Source: an uncultured Bacilli bacterium (GTDB taxonomy: Bacteria; Bacillota_I; Bacilli_A; RF39; UBA660). From it: DNA of 64,000 nt. The DNA lies in the NCBI GenBank assembly GCA_934153945.1, contig CAKPFM010000004.1, positions 34,469 to 98,468 on the forward strand, given 5' to 3'. Under the pieces are notes generated by a model that was not told where the DNA came from, made no database searches, and was given only the letters and a program-made list of their open reading frames with translations. This document shows, piece after piece, positions 4,925 through 64,000 of the stretch. Both the position numbers and the translations under genes were made by a program. Every line of letters starts with the position of its first letter. Position 1 is the first letter of the stretch.

Positions 4925-5467
4925 ATGGAATTAAAAGGAACAAAAACAGAGCAAAATTTAATGACAGCATTTGCTGGAGAATCACAAGCAAGAAATAAAT
5001 ATACATACTTTGCTAGTAAAGCTAAAAAAGAAGGATATGAACAAATAGCAGCTATCTTTGAAGAAACTGCAGGTAATGAAAAAGAACATGCTAAAATGTG
5101 GTTTAAATTACTACAAGGTGGCGAAATAAAAAGTACAAAAGAAAACTTACTACAAGCAGCTGAAGGTGAAAATTATGAATGGACAGATATGTATGATGAA
5201 TTTGCTAAAGTTGCCAAAGAAGAAGGATTTGATCATATAGCATTTCTATTTGAAGAAGTAGGAAAAATTGAAAAAAATCATGAAGAAAGATATCGTAAAC
5301 TACTTTCAAACTTAGAAAATGGTAAAGTATTTGTAAAAGAAGAACCAAAAATGTGGATTTGTCGTAATTGCGGACATGTTCATTATGGAGATAAAGCTCC
5401 AGAAATTTGTCCAGTATGTAATCATCCACAAAGTTATTTTGAGGTAAAAAACGAAAATTATCTATAA
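4925..5467 (+). CDS. rbr: Rubrerythrin
   Basis: Ferritin-like diiron N-terminal domain with paired E..EH motifs, and a C-terminal rubredoxin-like CRNCGHVH...CPVCNHP. Confidence 0.85.
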
Positions 5468-18674: not shown

Positions 18675-18682
18675 GAGAGATT

Positions 18683-19021
18683 ATGAAAAAATATGTAGTA
18701 ATTTTGTTATCAATTATCTGTTTAACTGGTTGTGGAAAGAAGAAAGTTGATCCACTATTAGGAATATGGGAAACTAATTATGAACTAGGATCATTTGGTA
18801 TTATAACTGAAAAATATGAATTTAAAGAAAATGGATTATGTACTAAGACATTAGATATGGGATCAACCATTGTTGAAGATTGTACTTATGAATTTAATGA
18901 AGATAAGACTCAGATAAAGATGGTTTGGGATAGCAAACAAAATAAAAATGAGTATATAAATTTTTCATTGAATGATAATATATTGATAATAGGTACAAGG
19001 GAATATCAAAAAAAAGATTAG
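18683..19021 (+). CDS. Small lipoprotein
   Basis: Signal peptide with lipobox LTGC. Confidence 0.6.
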   Translation: MKKYVVILLSIICLTGCGKKKVDPLLGIWETNYELGSFGIITEKYEFKENGLCTKTLDMGSTIVEDCTYEFNEDKTQIKMVWDSKQNKNEYINFSLNDNILIIGTREYQKKD

Positions 19022-19032
19022 TTTAATATAAA

Positions 19033-19058
19033 GGTACTTGAAAAAAGTATCTTTTTTT
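19033..19058 (+). terminator. Intrinsic terminator
   Basis: ggtactt-gaaaaa-aagtatc followed by T7. Confidence 0.6.
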
Positions 19059-19155
19059 GATAGACTGATAATGTAAATAAAAATAGTAATATAGTTTCAT
19101 GTAGTGATAAGATAGAAAATTAAATCAAAAAATAACGAGTATGCTATATGTAAAC

Positions 19156-19165
19156 GGGGGGGGGG
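19156..19165. repeat. G10 homopolymeric tract in the pilin-like gene promoter
   Basis: Ten consecutive G in a genome that is otherwise extremely AT-rich, about 50 bp upstream of the 19216 start. Confidence 0.9.
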
Positions 19166-19215
19166 TAATTTTACTAACCCTTTTTTTATTGCTTAAAATA
19201 GAAGGAGAATGAAAA

Positions 19216-20292
19216 ATGAAAAGAAAAGGATTTACGCTTGTGGAGTTATTAGCGGTAATAGTAATATTATCGGTAATAGCGTTAATCGCAACACCAATGA
19301 TATTAAACATAATAGAAGAAACCAAAAAAAGAAGCCTCGAAAATAGTGTTAAAGGACTATTAGAAGCATCAAATTATTTTGCAATAGAAAATAATGGAGT
19401 ATATGAATTTATATTTGATGAAACACATAAAGGAACAACAAAACAAGGAGAAAGATTAGATTATAAAGGAGAACTAGATGCAAAAGGAAAACTATATATA
19501 GATGAAGAAGGAGATATAAGTTTATGTGTATATAATGATAAATACTATGCATATAAAAATTATAATAGTGGAGTAATAATAGGAGAAAAAAGTAAAGATA
19601 ATTGTAATATAGATTATGATGGATTAACAAATAAGTATGTAGCTTACTTAGAAAGCGAAGGAATGAGTAGTAATGTATATACGAAAGAAGAAGTAAATGA
19701 ATTAGTTAGTAATTTAACAACAGAAATAAGTAGTTTAAAAAATAAAATTGAAGAATTAGAAAGCAATAATTATGCAACCAAGGAAGAATTAACAAATACA
19801 AGTGATAATTTAACAAATACAATTAATGAAAATAAAGCAAACATTGATAGTGTAAAAAATGGTTTAAATGAATATGCATTAAAAAGTGAATTAAGTAATA
19901 CAAATAATAATTTGATAACTACTAACAGTAATTTAGATGCTTTGACTAGTATTGTTAATAATAATAAATCTAATATAAATAATTTATCTACAAGCATTAA
20001 TAGTATAAAAGCACAAATTGGAACAAATTTTTATTCATTTAGTTATGATACCGGAGTACGTGGTTCAGAAATAACAAATGATATGATTATCAATGCATTA
20101 AAAATGGTTCCAGCCTCTTCAACATTTTTTGTTGTATATTTTAAATGTTTAGAAGGACAAAATGCTTCCTTAATTGGTTATAATTTGGGTAAGGAATATG
20201 GAACAGGATTATACTTTAATTACTATACTTCATCTTTAGTTTATAAATGGAAAAGTGAACTATATAATATAACATTAACTGAAGTTAAATAA
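19216..20292 (+). CDS. Prepilin-type (class III signal) N-terminal domain protein, paralog 1
   Basis: MKRKG|FTLVELLAVIVIL... with G-1/F+1/E+5 and a hydrophobic helix. AAGGAGA RBS. 358 aa, with an Asn-rich coiled region and a C-terminal globular part. Confidence 0.75.
   Translation: MKRKGFTLVELLAVIVILSVIALIATPMILNIIEETKKRSLENSVKGLLEASNYFAIENNGVYEFIFDETHKGTTKQGERLDYKGELDAKGKLYIDEEGDISLCVYNDKYYAYKNYNSGVIIGEKSKDNCNIDYDGLTNKYVAYLESEGMSSNVYTKEEVNELVSNLTTEISSLKNKIEELESNNYATKEELTNTSDNLTNTINENKANIDSVKNGLNEYALKSELSNTNNNLITTNSNLDALTSIVNNNKSNINNLSTSINSIKAQIGTNFYSFSYDTGVRGSEITNDMIINALKMVPASSTFFVVYFKCLEGQNASLIGYNLGKEYGTGLYFNYYTSSLVYKWKSELYNITLTEVK
19250..19319 (+). repeat. 70-nt segment that is near-identical (1 mismatch) to 62488-62557
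   Basis: By direct comparison, the 5' coding region of pilin-like paralogs 1 and 3 is almost the same. Confidence 0.85.
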
Positions 20293-20310
20293 ATCTAATT
20301 ATAATTTATA

Positions 20311-20342
20311 AAAAAATATATTGTTAATTCAATATATTTTTT
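20311..20342. terminator. Bidirectional terminator between the pilin-like gene and clpP
   Basis: A-run, atatattg-ttaatt-caatatat, T-run. Confidence 0.6.
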
Positions 20343-23769: not shown

Positions 23770-23851
23770 GTTAAAATAAAAGTATAAATAGTAAATGAAA
23801 GATTTATAATGATACTAAATTCATTATTTTTATATTGAAAGGGTGTTAATA

Positions 23852-26800
23852 ATGAAAAGAAATGGATTTACGTTGATAGAATTATTAGCTGTTATAGTAA
23901 TATTATCGGTAATATCATTAATAACGATACCAATTGTAACAGGTGTGATAGATACATCAAGAAGAAATAGTTTTAAAGTAACATGTATGGAAATATATGA
24001 TTCATATGATACCTATGTTGTTGCAAATGATTCAATAGGAAAAAATAATTCAAATATTATATTTGATTTTTCAAGTAAAAGGCAAAATACAGAAATAATA
24101 GGGGATATTAAATATGAACCAGTAAGTAAATTGTATTTAAAAGGTGAATTACCTAATAATGGAAAATATCAAATAAAAAATGATAAAAGAACACTAAAAG
24201 CAGATAATGGAAGATATACATGTGTAATTGATGAAAATAGAAGTGAGATATTAGGTGGAACTGTAGAAGAAAATGATACAACAGCTCCAGTAATAAATGA
24301 TGTAGTAATAACAAGTACAACAAATAGTATAAAAGTAGTAGTGGATGCTATAGAAGAAGATGGAGTGATTGCTAAATATTATTATAAATTTAATGGAGAA
24401 GAAATAGTAAGTGAAAATAATAGTAAAACATACACTAATTTAAAAGCAAATGAAGAGTATGAGATAGAAGTAGTAGTAGAAAATAAAAGTGGATTAAAGA
24501 GTAATAAAGTAGTTAAAAAGATAATGACAAAAAGTGTTTCAAATCCAACAATCAAACAGACAGTGCAAACACCAAGTAGTGGATATAGTTATGCACAATC
24601 AAGAACAATTCAAATTACATATAGTAATACAAATGTAAATAGTCCAGTATATTACTTCAAATCAAGTGTAGGAGCAACAGTAGCTAGTGGAGTAGTAACA
24701 GCATCATGTGGAACAGGAACAAATCCAGGAACATGTACAAGTTCAAGTGTAACAACAATAGTAGCTAATACATGGTATAAAACAACAAGTACAACACCAA
24801 GTGTAATATATAAAGCAAATGGAACATTGTATGCGTTAACAAGTGATGGAGCAAATATATCAGGAACAAGTACATTTACAATAAGTAAGATAGATACAAG
24901 TGCCCCAAGTGCAAGCATGAGTGTAGGAAGTATCAAAACAGATAGAGCAACAATAACAGCGACATGTAGTGATGCACAGTCAGGAATAACAAAATATGAA
25001 TATAGTAAAGATAATGGAACAACATGGATAACAAATGGAACAACAAATAGTTATACATTTACAGGCTTAACAAAAGAAACAAGTTATAAATACAAAATAA
25101 GATGTACGAATGGAAGTGGCTTGACAAAAGAAGCAAGTAGTACAAGTAGTACATTAGGATTTACAAATCCAACAATAAAACAAACGAGTCAAACACCAAC
25201 AAGTGGAACATGGGCAACAAGTAGAACAATTCAAATTACATATAGTAATACGAATGTAACAAGTCCAGTATATTACTTCAAATCAAGTGTAGGAGCAACA
25301 GTAGCTAGTGGAGTAGTAACAGCTGCGTGTGGAACAGGAACAAATCCAGGAACATGTACAAGTTCAAATATAACAACATTAGTAGCTAATACATGGTATA
25401 AAACAACAAGTACAACACCAAGTGTAACATATAAAGCAAATGGAACATTGTATGCGTTAACAAGTGATGGAGCAAATATATCAGGAACAAGTACATTTAC
25501 AATAAGTAAGATAGATACAAGTGCCCCAAGTGCAAGCATGAGTGTAGGAAGTATCAAAACAGATAGAGCAACAATAACAGCGACATGTAGTGATGCACAG
25601 TCAGGAATAACAAAATATGAATATAGTAAAGATAATGGAACAACATGGATATCAAATGGAACAACAAATAGTTATACATTTACAGGCTTAACAAAAGAAA
25701 CAAGTTATCAATACAAAATAAGATGTACAAACGGAAGTGGCTTAACAAAAGAAGCAAGTAGTACAAGTAGTACATTAGGATTTACAAATCCAACAATAAA
25801 ACAAACGAGTCAAACACCAAGTAGTGGAACATGGGCAACAAGTAGAACAATTCAAATTACATATAGTAATACAAATGTAAATAGTCCAGTATATTACTTC
25901 AAATCAAGTGTAGGAGCAACAGTAGCTAGTGGAGTAGTAACAGCTGCGTGTGGAACAGGAACAAATCCAGGAACATGTACAAGTTCAAATATAACAACAT
26001 TAGTAGCTAATACATGGTATAAAACAACAAGTACAACACCAAGTGTAATATATAGAGCAAATGGAACATTGTATGCATTAACAAGTGATGGAAAGAATAT
26101 ATCAGGAACAAGTACATTTACAATAAGTAAGATAGATACAAGTGCCCCATCAATATATGCATATTCTGGAACAATGTTATATCAGGATCCATATTTCACT
26201 TTGGGAACTAATAGTACTAGTATTTATAATAATTTAGGAAATGGAACAGTAACAATTACTAGAAAAGAAATGTCAGGAACATATTATGGATATGGAATTG
26301 AAATATCAACAACAGGAACAGCAAGTCCAGGACATGGTGGTTTCACTTTCTATACAGTATCAGCTGCCAATAAGGAACTTATTACAATAATAAATGCGAA
26401 AATACCAGTAGGATATCAAATAAACTGGGCTTCAAATGAAGTAGGTAATGGTGGAGTATTTGAATGGTTAACCAGTCAAGCAGGAACCGGAAATTGGCAA
26501 ACATATATATTTAGATTAAAATGCGGTTCAAGTGGAACATTTGCAACAACAAATTTCTTCTATTTAACAGGTGGATCAACAGCAACAACATCTTCCCCAG
26601 TAACATGGCAAGTCCAATTAGCAACAACAATAGATACAACAAAATATGGAGCAAGTAATTTTATAGTATTTGCAGGAAAAGATACAGAAAGCGGAGTAGC
26701 AGCATTTGGGGTAAATCAAAGTAGTACTACAGAACCATCATGGACAGCAACAAATGTTGGATGGTGGGCAGGTGGATATACATCAAATAGAACATATTAT

Positions 26801-28105
26801 GTATGGATAAAGGATGCACTAGATAATGTAAGTAAAGTACCTGTGACATTAAGTTATATAGATAATGTAACAACTCCAACAGTAACATACAATGGAGGAA
26901 GTAATAGTCATAGTTGGAAGAACAACTATAATATAACATTAACATCAACAGCTACAAGTGGAATACATCATTATGAAGTAGATTGGGATGGAGATGGAAT
27001 AGCAAATCAAACTATAACTAGTAATTTTATACCATGGGATGGATATTCATCATGTAATAATAGATTTAGAGCAGTAAGTAATAATGGTGTAGAAAGCGCT
27101 TGGACAAGTTCTCATGATATCCACATGGATACAAGCGCACCAGGAGCAACAACAATAACGTATAATGGTGGAGCAAATACATGTATATGGAAAAATAACT
27201 ATAATTTGACATTAACGTCAACGGATAATGTAGGAGTTTCATATTATCAAATAGATACAAATAATGATGGAGTGGCAGATACAACAGTAGGAAGTAGTTT
27301 TATTCCAACAAATGGATGGAGTACATGTACTGCAAGATTTAGAGCAGTAGATGGTGCTGGAAATGTTGGACCATGGACAGAAAAGCAACATATCCACATG
27401 GATACAGAAAAACCAGTACATACAAATTGGTGGTGGGGAGAAGTTACTAAAGATGTGGCAAGATTATATGTTCAAGCAACAGATAATGTAGGATTACCAG
27501 CTAATGCAACAACATACGATGGACATAATGCAGGAGTGTACTGTCCAACCTCAACACAAAGTGGCGGATATACAAACTTTGTATGGTTTAAAGGAAATTG
27601 GGACGCGAGTGCAAATGCATATAGATGTGATATAACGCCAAGTACTTTTGGACACTATGGACAAACATATAGAACACATTTATACATATATGATTATGTA
27701 GGAAATGGTGGATACTATAATGCAACATCAGTAAATATACCAACACCTAGTTATGCAGCAACAAATTCAAGTTATGCGGCAACTCCTAATACAACAACTT
27801 ATCCAACACAACCTACTGGAGAAACATATCGTTGTTGTTGGCATATAAGTAGTGCTAATGCATCAAAGAGTCAATGTGCTAGTGATACTATTGTAGATTA
27901 TGAAGATGGAAGTGGAAGATGGGAATGCGATCAATGTAGTACCTGTCCTAGAAAAGCATGTACAAATGGAGGAACGCAAAATGGTGATATTTGTACAAAG
28001 ACTGAATATACATGTCCAAATGGAGGAACTTTAAGTGGAACGACATGTGTCTTATATACATGTCCAAATGGAGGAACCTTAAGTGGAACAACATGTGTCA
28101 AATAA
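23852..28105 (+). CDS. Giant prepilin-type N-terminal domain protein, paralog 2, with FN3-like and tandem repeat modules and a Cys-rich C-terminus
   Basis: ATG at 23852 after an AAGGGTG RBS. MKRNG|FTLIELLAVIVIL. About 1417 aa, very rich in Thr/Ser/Gly/Asn. Confidence 0.8.
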   Translation: MKRNGFTLIELLAVIVILSVISLITIPIVTGVIDTSRRNSFKVTCMEIYDSYDTYVVANDSIGKNNSNIIFDFSSKRQNTEIIGDIKYEPVSKLYLKGELPNNGKYQIKNDKRTLKADNGRYTCVIDENRSEILGGTVEENDTTAPVINDVVITSTTNSIKVVVDAIEEDGVIAKYYYKFNGEEIVSENNSKTYTNLKANEEYEIEVVVENKSGLKSNKVVKKIMTKSVSNPTIKQTVQTPSSGYSYAQSRTIQITYSNTNVNSPVYYFKSSVGATVASGVVTASCGTGTNPGTCTSSSVTTIVANTWYKTTSTTPSVIYKANGTLYALTSDGANISGTSTFTISKIDTSAPSASMSVGSIKTDRATITATCSDAQSGITKYEYSKDNGTTWITNGTTNSYTFTGLTKETSYKYKIRCTNGSGLTKEASSTSSTLGFTNPTIKQTSQTPTSGTWATSRTIQITYSNTNVTSPVYYFKSSVGATVASGVVTAACGTGTNPGTCTSSNITTLVANTWYKTTSTTPSVTYKANGTLYALTSDGANISGTSTFTISKIDTSAPSASMSVGSIKTDRATITATCSDAQSGITKYEYSKDNGTTWISNGTTNSYTFTGLTKETSYQYKIRCTNGSGLTKEASSTSSTLGFTNPTIKQTSQTPSSGTWATSRTIQITYSNTNVNSPVYYFKSSVGATVASGVVTAACGTGTNPGTCTSSNITTLVANTWYKTTSTTPSVIYRANGTLYALTSDGKNISGTSTFTISKIDTSAPSIYAYSGTMLYQDPYFTLGTNSTSIYNNLGNGTVTITRKEMSGTYYGYGIEISTTGTASPGHGGFTFYTVSAANKELITIINAKIPVGYQINWASNEVGNGGVFEWLTSQAGTGNWQTYIFRLKCGSSGTFATTNFFYLTGGSTATTSSPVTWQVQLATTIDTTKYGASNFIVFAGKDTESGVAAFGVNQSSTTEPSWTATNVGWWAGGYTSNRTYYVWIKDALDNVSKVPVTLSYIDNVTTPTVTYNGGSNSHSWKNNYNITLTSTATSGIHHYEVDWDGDGIANQTITSNFIPWDGYSSCNNRFRAVSNNGVESAWTSSHDIHMDTSAPGATTITYNGGANTCIWKNNYNLTLTSTDNVGVSYYQIDTNNDGVADTTVGSSFIPTNGWSTCTARFRAVDGAGNVGPWTEKQHIHMDTEKPVHTNWWWGEVTKDVARLYVQATDNVGLPANATTYDGHNAGVYCPTSTQSGGYTNFVWFKGNWDASANAYRCDITPSTFGHYGQTYRTHLYIYDYVGNGGYYNATSVNIPTPSYAATNSSYAATPNTTTYPTQPTGETYRCCWHISSANASKSQCASDTIVDYEDGSGRWECDQCSTCPRKACTNGGTQNGDICTKTEYTCPNGGTLSGTTCVLYTCPNGGTLSGTTCVK
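24542..26150 (+). repeat. About 2.6 tandem copies of a 621/624-bp near-identical unit inside the CDS
   Basis: Copies start at 24542, 25166 and 25787. The antisense ORFs 24652-24936 and 25273-25557 translate almost identically. Confidence 0.85.
26868..27410 (+). repeat. Two divergent copies of a roughly 270-bp module
   Basis: Repeated TYNGG.N..W.NNYN.TLTST...RFRAV...HMDT pattern. Confidence 0.5.
28004..28096 (+). repeat. Two 45-48-nt direct repeats encoding YTCPNGGTLSGTTCV
   Basis: At the extreme C-terminus; a degenerate third copy lies upstream. Confidence 0.8.
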
Positions 28106-52073: not shown

Positions 52074-54182
52074 ATGAATATAGGAAATATTTATGATAAT
52101 CAAGAAGAAGATGTTTTAAGTAAATATGGACGTAATATTATAGAACTTGCTAAAGCGGGGAAAATTGATCCAGTTATTGGTAGGGATGAAGAAATAAGAA
52201 GTATTACAAGAGTTTTATCCCGTAAAACAAAAAATAATCCAGTACTAATAGGTGAAGCTGGAGTAGGTAAAACCGCTATAGTAGAAGGTTTAGCTTTACG
52301 TATCGTAAAAGGTGATGTACCAGAATCATTAAAAAATAAAACAATCTGGGAACTAGATATGGGTGCTTTAATAGCAGGAGCTAAATATAGAGGAGAATTT
52401 GAAGAAAGACTAAAAGCAGTACTAAAGAAAATAAAAGAATCAGATGGTAATATCATTATGTTTATTGATGAAATCCACATGATTGTTGGAAATAGTGCTG
52501 AAGGTAGTGTAGATACATCAAATATGTTAAAACCACTTCTAGCTAGGGGTGAAATAAAAGTAATTGGTGCTACCACATTAAATGAATATAGAAAATACAT
52601 AGAAAAAGATAGTGCTCTAGAAAGAAGATTTGAAAGAGTATTAGTAAATGCTCCAAGTGTTGAAGATACTATTACAATTTTAAGAGGTTTAAAACCAAGA
52701 TTTGAATTATTCCATGGAGTAACTATTAAAGATAAAGCATTAATAGCAGCAGCAACTTTATCAGATAGATATATAACAGATAGATTTTTACCAGATAAAG
52801 CAATTGATTTAGTAGATGAAGCTTGTGCTACTATAAAAGTTCAAATGGATTCAGTACCTTTTGAACTAGATAGTTTAACAAGAAAAATAATGGGACTTGA
52901 AATAGAATTAGAGGCAATCAAAAAAGATAAAGATGAAATGTCTAAAAAAAGAGTTTTAGCTATAAAAGATGAAGTAGCTATTTTAAGAAAAAAAGAACAA
53001 GAATTAAAAGGATCTTGGGAAGAAGAAAAGAAATTAAAAGAAACAATTAATAAAAAGAAAGATGAATTAGAAAGAAATAAGTTTTTACTTGAACAAGCTG
53101 AAAATAATTATGATTTAGAAACAGCAGCTCGTATTAAACATGGTGTAATACCTACTTTAGAACAAGAATTAGAAAATTTGAAAAAACAAGATAATTATAA
53201 ATTATTAAGTGATTCAGTAACAGAAGAAGATATAGCAAAAGTAATATCTAAAATGACAAATATTCCAATTCAAAAATTAGTAGGTGGAGAAAGAGAAAAA
53301 TTATTACATTTAAAAGAAAACATGGAAAAAAGAGTAATGGGTCAAGATGAAGCTATAAGTAAAGTAAGTTCAGCTATAATAAGAGCAAGAGCAGGTATTA
53401 AAGATCCAAATAGACCAATTGGTTCATTTATCTTTTTAGGTCCAACTGGAGTAGGTAAAACAGAAGTAGCTAAGACACTAGCAAGCGAACTATTTGATGA
53501 TGAAAGACACATTATAAGAATTGATATGAGTGAATACATGGAAGCTTACAATGTTTCAAGATTAATTGGTGCTCCTCCAGGATATGTAGGATATGATGAA
53601 GGTGGACAATTAACTGAAAAAGTAAGAAGAAATCCATATAGTATAGTTTTGTTTGATGAAATAGAAAAAGCCCATCCAGATGTATTTAATATATTGTTAC
53701 AAATACTAGATGATGGTAGAATAACTGATTCACAAGGTAGAACAGTAGACTTTAAAAATACGATTATTATAATGACATCTAATTTAGGTAGTGAATATAT
53801 TTTAGATAATAAAGAAAATAGTAATGAATTAGTAATGAATGAATTAAAACATACATTTAAACCAGAATTTATAAATCGTATAGATGAAATAATTATATTT
53901 AATCCATTAGCTAAAAAAGTAGTTTATAATATTGTTGATAAATTATTAAATGAATTAGAATTAAGATTAAAAGATAAATTAATTAAAATAGATATAACTG
54001 ATAAAGCTAAAGACTTTATTGTAGATAATGCTTATGATGAATCATTTGGTGCTAGACCTATAAAAAGATATATTGTAAGTAATATCGAAAACTTAATTGC
54101 AAGTAAAATAATTAATGATGAAATTAAATATAATAGTACTATTTTAATAGATATAGAAAATGATAAATTCATAATAAAATAA
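52074..54182 (+). CDS. clpB: ClpB-type AAA+ disaggregase lacking the N-terminal domain
   Basis: Two Walker A motifs ([18 protein letters not shown]), a long coiled-coil M-domain, and no ClpP-docking IGF loop. 702 aa, starting where canonical ClpB NBD1 begins. Confidence 0.8.
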
Positions 54183-62289: not shown

Positions 62290-62393
62290 CTATAATAATT
62301 GTTACACTTTAGATACAAAAAAAATGAAAATTGCTATTATGAGTTATAAAAAATACTATTTTGTGTTATAATTGAGATACAGTAGAGAATAGA

Positions 62394-62453: not shown

Positions 62454-64000
62454 ATGAAAAGAAAAGGATTTACGTTGATTGAACTACTAGCGGTAATAGT
62501 AATATTATCGGTAATAGCGTTAATCACAACACCAATGATATTAAACATAATAGAAGAGACAAGAAAGAAAGCATCAATAGAAAGTGTAAACGGAATATTA
62601 GATGCAGCAGAGAAATATGAAATAACAAGCATGTTAGAAGGAGAAGAAACAAGAAGGTTTGAGTTTCCAAATGAGAAATTACAATATAAAGGAACAAAAC
62701 CAGAAAGTGGAACACTAATAATAGATGAAGAAGGAAATACAAGTATAACAGTATTAATAAATGGATACTGTGTAAGAAAGAGATTTAATGAAACAACACC
62801 AAGTGTAATAGAAGAAAAAAATTGTACAATAGAAGATAGTGAATTAATATATGCAGAAAGATATAAAGAAGAAATATTAAATGGAGCATATCCAGAAATA
62901 AAGAATGAATTAATACCAGTAACAATAGAAAGTAATGGAACAGTAACATATGCAGATATAAGAAAAGAATGGTATAGTTATAAAAATAAGATATGGGCAA
63001 ATGCCGTAATATTAAAAGATAATGTAACACATAGTGTAGGAGAGGTAATACCAGAAAGTGATATAAAACAATATTATGTATGGATACCAAGATATAAATA
63101 TGAATTATGGAATGTAAATGGAGAAAATAAATATCCAAATGGAACAAGTTCAGAAAGTGCGATAAATATAGTATTTGAAAGTAAAGATAAAGAAACAAGT
63201 AATGGAACTGAAAATGGAGAATGGTTAACACATCCAGCGTTTACATCATTTAATACGAATGGAATATGGGTAGGAAAATATGAAACAAGTTATGATGAAG
63301 AAACATATACAGATTCAAGTAAGTTTCTAACTACAAATCCAAATTATGCAGCAGCTACAAATGCTTCAAATATAATAATAAAACCAAATGTAAGAAGTTT
63401 AACAAACAAAAAAGTAAGTGAATTTTATACATTAGGAAGAGGAATAAATGAAGGATTAAACTCACATATGATGAAAAATAGTGAATGGGGAGCAGTATCA
63501 TATTTAACATATTCATTATTCGGAAAATGTACAGAAACAGGATGTGAAGAAGTATATCTAAATAATATCAATACAGGGTATTTAAATAGTACAGCAACAT
63601 TTACAGGACAGTGGCAATATAGCGGAAGTATAACAGGATGTAGTGCATCAAGTACTTCGGCAACTGTAAATAGTAATCAATCATCATGTTCAAGTGGCTA
63701 TGCATATAATGAAGCAAATAATAAAGCAAGTACAACAGGAAACATAAGTGGAATCTATGATATGAGTGGAGGAAACTGGGAATATGTAATGGGAGTAATA
63801 AAAGATGCATCAGGTAATCCAATGAGTGGAATAAATAGTACATACAATTCAGGATTTAATGGAACATATGGATGTCCAACATGTAATAGTGATACATCAG
63901 GATTAACAAGTTTAACAACAGGAATAAATTTTCCAACAGATACAAGATATTATGATTTATATGCACCAAACTCAACAGAGTTAGGTGATGATACATGGTA
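62454..64000 (+). CDS. Prepilin-type N-terminal domain protein, paralog 3; runs off the 3' end of the window
   Basis: MKRKG|FTLIELLAVIVIL. GAGGAG RBS. More than 515 aa. Internal motifs WLTHPAF, GIWVGKYE, EWGAVSYL, GIYDMSGGNWEY. Confidence 0.75.
   Translation, partial: MKRKGFTLIELLAVIVILSVIALITTPMILNIIEETRKKASIESVNGILDAAEKYEITSMLEGEETRRFEFPNEKLQYKGTKPESGTLIIDEEGNTSITVLINGYCVRKRFNETTPSVIEEKNCTIEDSELIYAERYKEEILNGAYPEIKNELIPVTIESNGTVTYADIRKEWYSYKNKIWANAVILKDNVTHSVGEVIPESDIKQYYVWIPRYKYELWNVNGENKYPNGTSSESAINIVFESKDKETSNGTENGEWLTHPAFTSFNTNGIWVGKYETSYDEETYTDSSKFLTTNPNYAAATNASNIIIKPNVRSLTNKKVSEFYTLGRGINEGLNSHMMKNSEWGAVSYLTYSLFGKCTETGCEEVYLNNINTGYLNSTATFTGQWQYSGSITGCSASSTSATVNSNQSSCSSGYAYNEANNKASTTGNISGIYDMSGGNWEYVMGVIKDASGNPMSGINSTYNSGFNGTYGCPTCNSDTSGLTSLTTGINFPTDTRYYDLYAPNSTELGDDTW

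Follow-up and report, generated by a model that had tools for sequence, protein, structure and literature searches.

The poly-G tract and its locus

The stretch of DNA analysed here (the window) comprises 64,000 nucleotides (nt) of contig CAKPFM010000004.1 in assembly GCA_934153945.1 (positions 34,469-98,468, forward strand; ~25% GC), and the element in question is a run of ten uninterrupted guanines (G10) at window positions 19156-19165 on the forward strand. The tract sits in a 194-nt spacer between a lipoprotein-like open reading frame (ORF; 18683-19021) and an ORF of 358 amino acids (aa; 19216-20292) encoding a pilin-like protein, and its 3' end lies 50 nt from the ATG at 19216. Downstream of the tract come TAATTTTACTAA, then CCC (19178-19180) and a run of seven thymines (T7; 19181-19187). 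A census of homopolymers across the 64 kb counted one G5, twenty G4 and no C run longer than 4 besides the single G10, which is the sole G/C run above 5 nt. The number of G10 runs expected by chance in the window ranges from 0.0003 (independent, identically distributed nucleotides) to 0.0006 (first-order Markov model). The original prediction, made from the letters of this DNA, had described a G10 at 19156-19165 about 50 bp before the start codon of a pilin-like gene, followed by ccc and a T7 run, in a genome otherwise without G/C runs beyond 4-5; all of this agrees with the sequence and with the census, and the pilin-like assignment agrees with a match of the 19216-20292 product to Pfam N_methyl (31.7 bits; cut-off 21.2).

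Contingency loci call for a slippage-prone G/C run of at least ~7-8 nt, which ten guanines exceed, and for a location within, or in the 5' control region of, a gene for a surface or host-interaction protein, here upstream of an N_methyl pilin-like ORF. A comparable tract-before-gene arrangement occurs at more than 30 other loci.

Tract length varies among gut metagenomes

Assemblies of the same locus were found through contigs encoding exactly the flanking lipoprotein, ClpP or pilin variants, which gave 15 independent gut-metagenome assemblies, the window included, spanning the tract at the EzrA-lipoprotein-pilin-ClpP locus. Tract lengths, which are assembled consensus calls compared between samples and not drawn from reads, were distributed as follows:

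G8: one assembly (L004)
G9: six assemblies (L003, L006, L008, L009, L010, L153)
G10: six assemblies (the window, L002, L005, L007, L152, L165)
G11: two assemblies (L154, L163)

Apart from the tract, the spacer is nearly identical among the 15 assemblies and defines four flank haplotypes, three of which contain at least two tract lengths, the fourth having been sampled once. Because length varies inside three of the four haplotypes, at least five independent length changes are required. For comparison, 15 A/T runs of 7-8 nt located from 15.7 to 22.7 kb were constant in every scorable contig, and near the locus only the G tract and the adjoining T7 vary in length. The tract thus changes length far more often than its flanks do among close strains, another hallmark of a contingency locus, and the pattern between samples is, as read from the assemblies, the one predicted for a hypermutable tract. 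Three assemblies also break at the tract: L001 and L017 both begin with G9, and L011 ends after G3 and L167, from the same sample, begins 12 nt before the ATG. These breaks, together with that of L174, are suggestive of heterogeneity within populations.

The apparent variation could also stem from sequencing or assembly, through the poly-G artefact of two-colour chemistry or through homopolymer miscalls, as three contigs end at or in the tract, some contigs have a coverage of only 4-8x according to their names, and the lengths are consensus values. We judge this highly improbable: in more than 15 assemblies, produced by two assemblers in several projects, the tract lies inside the contig between identical unique flanks, it recurs in other species and at other loci, the lengths differ by up to 3 nt, and contig breaks are equally expected at a multi-copy cassette. 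The check proposed with the original prediction, a search for length heterogeneity in other isolates, came out positive (G8-G11 in 15 assemblies, with invariant neighbouring A/T runs). As far as sequence data reach, this polymorphism supports the predicted slipped-strand phase-variation switch, and at the level of sequence a simple-sequence contingency locus is supported.

Anatomy of the leader

The features that surround the tract, all on the forward strand, are as follows (window coordinates):

19033-19058, +: intrinsic terminator of the preceding lipoprotein-like gene, read from the sequence (GGTACTT-gaaaa-AAGTATC, then T7)
19057-19062, +: TTGATA of an alternative promoter reading (16 nt, then AAAAAT), listed by the promoter scan
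19065-19092, +: promoter-like element in block A (CTGATA at 19065-19070, 16-nt spacer, TAATAT at 19087-19092)
19095-19155, +: 5' part of the putative leader, the last 14 nt of which are block B
19141-19212, +: upstream ORF crossing the tract; in the G10 frame it reads MLYVNGGGVILLTLFLLLKIEGE, and its stop falls 3 nt short of the pilin ATG
19142-19155, +: block B, TGCTATATGTAAAC, adjoining the tract; general form TGCTATATG(T/C)AAAC, 14 nt
19156-19165, +: G10 homopolymer (sequence, run census and 15 assemblies)
19157-19182, +: terminator-like hairpin (minimum free energy and centroid folds)
19181-19187, +: T7 run, directly 3' of the hairpin at the position of a terminator U-tract
19201-19207, +: Shine-Dalgarno (SD) sequence GAAGGAG, 8 nt before the ATG, read from the sequence
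19216-20292, +: pilin-like gene of 358 aa, the putative target of regulation

Since the preceding gene has its own terminator at 19033-19058, the hairpin that contains the G tract is not the terminator of that gene. From the promoter-like element in block A, transcription is predicted to start at about 19098-19100. A promoter scan of the region returned 20 hits against 18.2 expected in shuffled sequences and is uninformative taken alone, and a search of Rfam 15 at the tract gave chance-level matches only (E = 1.5-10), none at the gathering score.

The original prediction had spoken of a tract in the promoter region. Its position near the gene start stands, but the promoter-like element with the best conservation is found on the 5' side of the tract, which would place the tract in the 5' leader. 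The T7 run is itself polymorphic between samples, appearing as T7, T5, CT4 or in the C-substituted forms CCCCTTTT and CCTCTTTT, and such changes would alter the U-tract of the putative terminator.

A cassette shared by many loci and species

Comparison of copies identifies the tract as a module of an upstream cassette of ~130 nt that heads many paralogous pilin-like genes of the lineage. From 5' to 3' it comprises a terminator belonging to the preceding gene, a promoter-like -10 element, and a leader in which a 5' hairpin, AAAC and G(n) are followed by an inner stem-loop rich in A/U, a C/U-rich stretch and a U-run; the SD and the ATG close the series. Block A, 27 nt long (ATGTAAATAAAAATAGTAATATAGTTT), is identical in the window and in L012 and L024, its core TAATATAGTTT is retained in nearly all copies, and a terminator equivalent to that at 19033-19058 precedes the cassette in most of them. 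In every copy the run on the sense strand is of G and never of C, which lends weak support to a role in RNA, the copies being homologous.

Copies in other species were sought by an alignment search for pilin homologues in species-representative genomes, confined to the matches listed, after which low-GC loci were scanned for G runs of at least 8 nt. L012 (G10) and L024 (G9) are two loci of the metagenome-assembled genome (MAG) MGYG-HGUT-02248, with a protein 51% identical to that of the window, and L017 has its G9 at the contig start; these three loci belong to other species, as represented in GTDB. The species of the window holds a second cassette-headed locus, L162 (DUF87, pilin P0002, a 433-aa and a 128-aa product, PolC), with G10; because the window begins inside PolC, a locus of the L162 type must lie just 5' of it. 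P0002 is 93% identical to the window pilin over the first 73% of its length, has an unrelated C-terminal domain and shares the upstream region. Contig L003 joins the EzrA-side upstream region to the downstream genes of the L162-type locus, by recombination between paralogs or as an assembly chimera.

Scanning metagenome contigs for block B followed by GGG returned 60 stretches, 42 of which carry G3-G5 and were discarded as unrelated chance matches (GC up to 69%). All but one of the 18 stretches with G9-G10 are the element, L140 (G9, 48% GC) being probably unrelated. Assembly OIZF01 contributes 16 element stretches, 15 with G10 and one with G9, so that this one metagenome holds at least 16 loci of the cassette; seven of its contigs (L094, L100, L103, L104, L108, L130 and L135) end 10-100 nt after the tract, as expected for a multi-copy cassette of ~130 nt that adjoins a coding region with a conserved N-terminus. 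In contigs that extend far enough, a KGFTLIELLAV pilin-like gene is the next ORF, 30-125 nt downstream, with L114 as the exception. There, at 5016-5160, block B, G10 and the hairpin stand 118 nt before a sugar-transferase-like gene (MNETNAAEETKDIGRGLSYLIPKRILD...), which suggests that the module also serves a surface-polysaccharide locus. The upstream region of L114 is unrelated and carries a near-consensus promoter (TTGAAA-17-TGgTACAAT) 32-38 nt before block B and G10.

Tract length differs at other loci as well. At the P0075 locus, ~60 nt before the P0075 gene, we found G9, G10, G10 and, twice (L169 and L171), the interrupted form GGGGAGGGGG, presumably a locked allele; the P0028 locus has G8, and one further contig begins at the tract. 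In L047, from a rabbit-gut MAG (1843-1930), the codons of the prepilin leader themselves contain a G9 (ATG GAC AAA ATA ACG ATT C-G9-TTA), where G8 or G11 would open a prepilin-like ORF of 560 aa with a good SD and the deposited G9 stops after 15 codons. By its reading frames, this is the classical configuration of translational phase variation within the same gene family, and it supplies an independent proof of principle for the lineage.

Several observations concern individual copies. L024 and L120 share an identical 125-nt upstream region and differ downstream of the hairpin, which points to recombination or assembly switching at the cassette. In L105 (L105a), L113, L120 and L135, ~120 nt with a good promoter (TTTACA-17-TGaTAAACT) intervene between the cassette and the pilin-like gene. 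In another 'Bacilli' MAG, L090 carries a G8 (746-753) between a perfect TTGACA and TATAGT at 21-nt spacing, before a gene for a secreted or membrane protein; this may be an unrelated promoter-spacer tract.

Folding of the leader RNA

The original prediction had proposed that the G-run, CCC and the T-run could form a hairpin, and such a G:C/U hairpin was recovered in all 22 sequence-distinct copies, from several species, with G(n) paired to the C/U-rich arm at -8 to -14 kcal/mol. In the window, G19157-19161 pair with CCCUU (19178-19182) and GGUA (19164-19167) with UACU (19172-19175) around an AUUU loop. The C/U arm reads CCC, CCCC, CCUC, CCUCUUC or CUCCC among copies, and the inner stems differ yet remain complementary (GGUA/UACU, GGUAUU/AAUACC, GGUAA/UUACC, GUGUAU/AUACAC). 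In most copy types, U4-7 follows the C/U arm, so that folding yields what an attenuator would comprise, a stable stem-loop followed by a sense-strand U-run. With its native downstream sequence, G10 folds at -9.5 kcal/mol, against -3.6 +/- 3.0 kcal/mol with random 34-mers from the window, 6% of which reach -9 kcal/mol or below; in this C-poor window, C-rich stretches with T4 or more behind them at the right distance occur at a base rate of 0.8%. For this hairpin (hairpin 2), a MAFFT alignment lacked the structural coherence needed to count pairs, and per-sequence folds were used. A G-quadruplex was ruled out, as a single G-run is unable to form one within a molecule.

Folds of the L024-type leader from G7 to G12 alternate between two nearly isoenergetic states. 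At n of 9 or less, the C/U stretch pairs with the SD region, which is then sequestered; at n of 10 or more, the full G-run pairs with CCUCUUC(U), the SD is free and a long stem abuts the U-run. In the window, too, alternative folds allow the SD to pair with the U/C-rich stretch. Tract length may thus plausibly tune termination, ribosome access or both.

A further hairpin lies 5' of the tract in L012-type copies, where the 5' end of the leader pairs over 14 bp with block B as its 3' arm (96% of cells paired); variation there consists of one-sided changes, most of which preserve pairing through G-U wobble. Hairpin 1 is weak in the window itself, and the P0075 locus has a different hairpin, GUACGCAUA/UAUGUAC, at the same position. 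Pairing on the sense strand is suggestive here, compatible with the variation rather than proven by it.

The leader also contains the upstream ORF at 19141-19212, and attenuation by a leader peptide, of the type described for pil1 of Streptococcus gallolyticus, would have the number of guanines set the reading frame and thereby how far the ribosome travels in relation to the hairpin: with G10 it would stop 3 nt short of the pilin ATG, with G9 right after the tract, and with G8 or G11 ahead of the SD, controlling termination or translational coupling. The sequence shows the ORF and the three outcomes of its frames, and the principle has a precedent (PMC3894217). However, no SD stands at a workable distance before the ATG at 19141, the start in L012-type copies is TTG or an ATG in another frame, inside the 14-bp hairpin 1, so that ATG occurs only in the window type, and the polymorphic T-run would shift the frames again between haplotypes. 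With an upstream ORF that lacks an SD and a start that is not conserved, we set this explanation aside as very unlikely.

Alternatively, the tract could act in the DNA as the spacer of a promoter, between a -35 hexamer ATGCTA (19141-19146; TTGCTA in most other copies) and a -10 hexamer TAATTT (19166-19171; TATTTT elsewhere). The spacer would then measure 9 + n, that is 17, 18, 19 and 20 nt for G8, G9, G10 and G11, and only the shortest alleles would be efficiently transcribed. The hexamers and the spacing arithmetic are readable in the sequence, G8-G11 straddle the 17-nt optimum, all L012-type copies keep TTGCTA, a change of one nucleotide would switch sharply, and a modal G10 (19 nt, OFF) would suit a multigene family that is mostly silent. 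We nonetheless consider this reading, the main rival to a leader hairpin, unlikely. Both window hexamers are weak (three of six matches each) and the pair is absent from the promoter scan hits; at the P0075 locus the -35 is ACACTA, although the tract, hairpin and U-run are retained; and the -10 becomes TAAATC (L145), TTACAT (L113), CATTTT (L104 and L137) or is offset by AG (L012), and is not kept in L017. The conservation of TTGCTA is equally explained by its place in the 3' arm of hairpin 1, and the C-rich stretch, the U-run, the complementary inner stems and the upstream promoter-like block would all be left unexplained.

A third possibility is that the G-run serves only as the G-rich side of a stem or terminator, perhaps in a small RNA or short leader RNA transcribed from the cassette, held by selection at ~10 nt, with changes of one nucleotide as slippage noise that is neutral or slightly deleterious. 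The lengths are indeed tight (G10 at 15 of 16 loci of one metagenome, overall range 8-11, mostly 9-10), no feature is better conserved than the hairpin and U-run, folding energy changes little with n, and four loci have a promoter of their own downstream of the cassette. Against this, no other terminator of the window is built with a G/C run, and a mutable run of 10 nt is a costly stem design in a 24%-GC genome. In L047, moreover, the tract is coding and out of frame at G9, a configuration that to our knowledge occurs only in phase-variable genes, and the interrupted GGGGAGGGGG allele fits the pattern of contingency loci, as does the association with surface genes that vary between strains and are in some cases deleted or carry nonsense mutations. 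A purely structural role appears rather improbable.

A candidate mechanism in the leader RNA

The explanation that we favour, with a probability of about 0.5, is a slipped-strand contingency locus read out in the leader RNA through a hairpin that serves as a length-tuned attenuator or controls access to the SD. Transcription would begin at the upstream promoter-like element, so that the tract would fall within the 5' leader. Once transcribed, the G-run would supply the 5' arm and the C/U-rich stretch the 3' arm of a stem followed by the U-run, in the shape of an intrinsic terminator or attenuator, and the C/U stretch could pair instead with the purine-rich SD. Slipped-strand mispairing during replication would add or remove guanines, as the alleles from G8 to G11 would reflect, and tract length would alter both the reach of the stem into the U-tract and the competition with pairing to the SD. 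The outcome would be a changed amount of full-length translatable mRNA, amounting to a heritable, reversible dimmer or ON/OFF switch. The start site, termination at the hairpin and the effect of tract length on expression are all modelled from sequence and folding.

The tract is placed in a transcribed leader because a conserved promoter-like block lies 65-70 nt upstream of it, and because L114, with its unrelated upstream region, likewise has its promoter upstream of block B and G10. The leader hairpin is favoured over a promoter spacer because the C/U arm and the U-run are conserved, and because the P0075 locus keeps both the hairpin and the U-run with ACACTA in place of the -35 hexamer.

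Several observations weigh against a length-tuned leader hairpin. A strict consensus terminator scan did not call the hairpin, because of the internal loop and G-U pairs in its stem. Whole leaders did not fold more stably than dinucleotide shuffles (z = -0.7, -0.9 and -0.35); since these scores are not significant, the comparative conservation of the hairpin was used instead. In hairpin 1, the covariation analysis revealed no double compensatory change and did not exceed the shuffle control, its 3' arm being fixed by the search pattern. The energy steps between tract lengths in L024-type folds are ~0.4-0.7 kcal/mol, so that thermodynamics alone do not predict a sharp switch, and a graded effect, as for uspA1 (PMC7302503), is likelier. 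Where a promoter stands between cassette and gene, as at four loci, the gene may escape control by the cassette. Finally, the tight clustering of lengths (15 of 16 at G10 in one metagenome) could reflect selection for a fixed structural length, and the tract lengths themselves come from consensus sequences.

The pilin-like gene and its paralogs

The product of 19216-20292 begins with MKRKG followed by FTLVELLAVIVILSVIAL (MKRKG-FTLVELLAV), that is, a short basic leader, G at -1, F at +1, E at +5 and a hydrophobic alpha-1. We found ~2,240 homologues, almost all metagenomic, in which the first ~160 residues are highly conserved; beyond them come a coiled coil, which differs in length, and unrelated C-terminal domains of ~100 aa. 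The AlphaFold model comprises an N-terminal helix (8-58), a beta-sheet head (~60-145; predicted local distance difference test, pLDDT, 85-90), a long helix or coiled coil (~157-271) and a small alpha/beta C-terminal domain, with a moderate overall pLDDT of 69. Foldseek searches of the three-domain model against the PDB gave no significant match (best pilin hit 8tum_a, E = 1.4). Given this pLDDT and the lack of a PDB match, the protein is assigned to the pilins by its N-terminal motif together with its secondary structure. Among the 28 window ORFs scanned, no gene for pilus assembly machinery (prepilin peptidase, ATPase or platform protein) was found.

The gene also varies between strains. Assemblies L152 and L154, which belong to different flank haplotypes, have a nonsense codon at position 314 (CLE*QNAS) that truncates the variable C-terminal domain. 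L157 is without the lipoprotein-G-tract-pilin module (window 18675-20340) and has EzrA, 33 nt with a small hairpin terminator, and ClpP; the module looks like an accessory insertion or deletion. Divergence of the C-terminal domain, nonsense alleles and module loss are, in the assemblies compared, properties of a variable, dispensable surface gene.

The window contains two other pilin paralogs on the forward strand, and neither has an upstream G tract or a copy of the cassette. The first (23843-28105) is a giant protein of 1420 aa with three near-identical repeats of ~200 aa (TIKQT.QTP.SG...ISKIDTSAPSASMSVGSIKTDRATITATCSDAQSGITKYEYSKDNGTTW...), a Cys-rich C-terminus and a weak fn3 hit. The second (62454-64000), which runs off the window end, is almost identical to the 19216 gene over its first ~35 residues and is preceded by a canonical extended -10 element (TGTTATAAT, ~62365-62373).

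Relation to known systems

A literature search found no description of this poly-G cassette system. By analogy, the system that it most resembles is uspA1 of Moraxella catarrhalis, in which an upstream G(n) tract alters mRNA ~20-fold (PMC7302503). Both have a non-coding poly-G upstream of the gene, ~8-12 nt in uspA1, where the gene encodes a coiled-coil surface adhesin and length changes of one nucleotide grade the mRNA level (PMC7302503), and both genes show modular variation between strains, which in the window gene affects the C-terminal domain. In contrast to the present case, uspA1 is a single locus of a Gram-negative pathogen, with no terminator-like pairing partner described and an unclear mechanism, whereas the tract described here belongs to the cassette of a multigene family in a gut Firmicute-type lineage and is known from sequence alone.

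In pil1 of S. gallolyticus, a hypermutable repeat in the leader precedes a premature stem-loop terminator, and repeat number sets read-through (PMC3894217). The logic of a repeat-controlled leader terminator is common to both, pil1 being a Gram-positive pilus locus as well (PMC3894217). The pil1 repeat is GCAGA, lies in a translated leader peptide, acts through the ribosome and governs sortase-assembled pili (PMC3894217). Here, by contrast, the homopolymer itself appears to be an arm of the hairpin, a translated leader peptide is unlikely for want of an SD, and the product is type-IV-pilin-like.

Homopolymer switches in promoter spacers include the poly-A of Mycoplasma hyorhinis vlp, the poly-C of Bordetella fim and the poly-G/C of Neisseria porA and opc. 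Like the cassette-headed genes, vlp is a multigene family of a Mollicutes-related lineage with a shared, conserved 5' expression region, and its copies switch independently. The tracts of fim, porA, opc and vlp sit between recognisable -35 and -10 hexamers, unlike the tract here, where the hexamers are weak or not conserved and a complementary C/U arm and U-run follow. Intragenic poly-G contingency genes are found in Campylobacter, Helicobacter, Haemophilus and Neisseria, and the resemblance to them lies in the G8-G11 range, in lengths that differ among isolates, in locked alleles with an interrupted tract and in the kind of gene affected, for the surface or for interaction with the host. It is this intragenic, translational mode that the L047 homologue employs; the window tract differs in being non-coding, 50 nt before the ATG. 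In Bacillus subtilis pyrG, RNA polymerase adds G residues in response to CTP, which prevents formation of a terminator. As is proposed here, a G run in the pyrG leader pairs with the pyrimidine-rich strand of a terminator hairpin and in this way decides termination, but here the guanines are encoded in the DNA, vary by mutation and would form the terminator-like stem.

The organism and what the tract may mean for it

The pilin-like gene stands among housekeeping genes (PolC, ArgRS, RpsD, EzrA, ClpP, GAPDH, a GyrA/ParC-like topoisomerase subunit, DnaK and a class A penicillin-binding protein, PBP). In the databases searched, exact or near-exact copies of the neighbouring proteins occur only in human-gut metagenome assemblies, and the nearest named homologues among the matches listed come from MAGs labelled 'Tenericutes/Mycoplasmatota bacterium' or 'uncultured Bacilli bacterium'. 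From its EzrA, PBP and VanY-type genes, the organism would be a low-GC relative of Mollicutes that is of Firmicute type and has a cell wall; it is an uncultured inhabitant of the human gut with 24% GC. Elsewhere in the window, Rfam gave a single match above the gathering score, a skipping-rope RNA (RF02924; 51829-51929, forward strand; 39.3 bits, cut-off 36.7), flanked by an ORF of 186 aa and a ClpB/ClpC-like gene (52074-54182).

Phase variation through simple repeats is textbook knowledge for a handful of cultured pathogens and is hardly documented in the uncultured majority of the gut, to which the present case adds a sequence-defined example in a reduced-genome lineage known only from MAGs. 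What is new is the lineage-wide cassette form, the large pilin-like family of an uncultured gut clade that it heads, and a possible read-out at the RNA level. More tentatively, the lineage may possess a portable cassette of ~130 nt in which slippage-prone poly-G serves as an arm of a terminator or anti-anti-SD hairpin, so that a replication error would be read as RNA folding, at the head of a large pilin-like family with interchangeable C-terminal domains. A G-run acting as the arm of a leader hairpin would be an extra variant of gene control by repeat tracts and may inform unexplained cases of the uspA1 kind.

For those working with such genomes, assemblies of this lineage tend to fragment, and possibly to mis-join, at cassette loci, and the question of tract length is directly testable on existing read archives. 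For the bacterium, the surface structures probably vary within a single host, which bears on immunoglobulin A (IgA) targeting, phage receptors and adhesion. If the proposed cassette exists in this form, these commensals would command a combinatorial, phase-variable set of adhesins carried on pili, much as mycoplasmas do with their variable lipoproteins.

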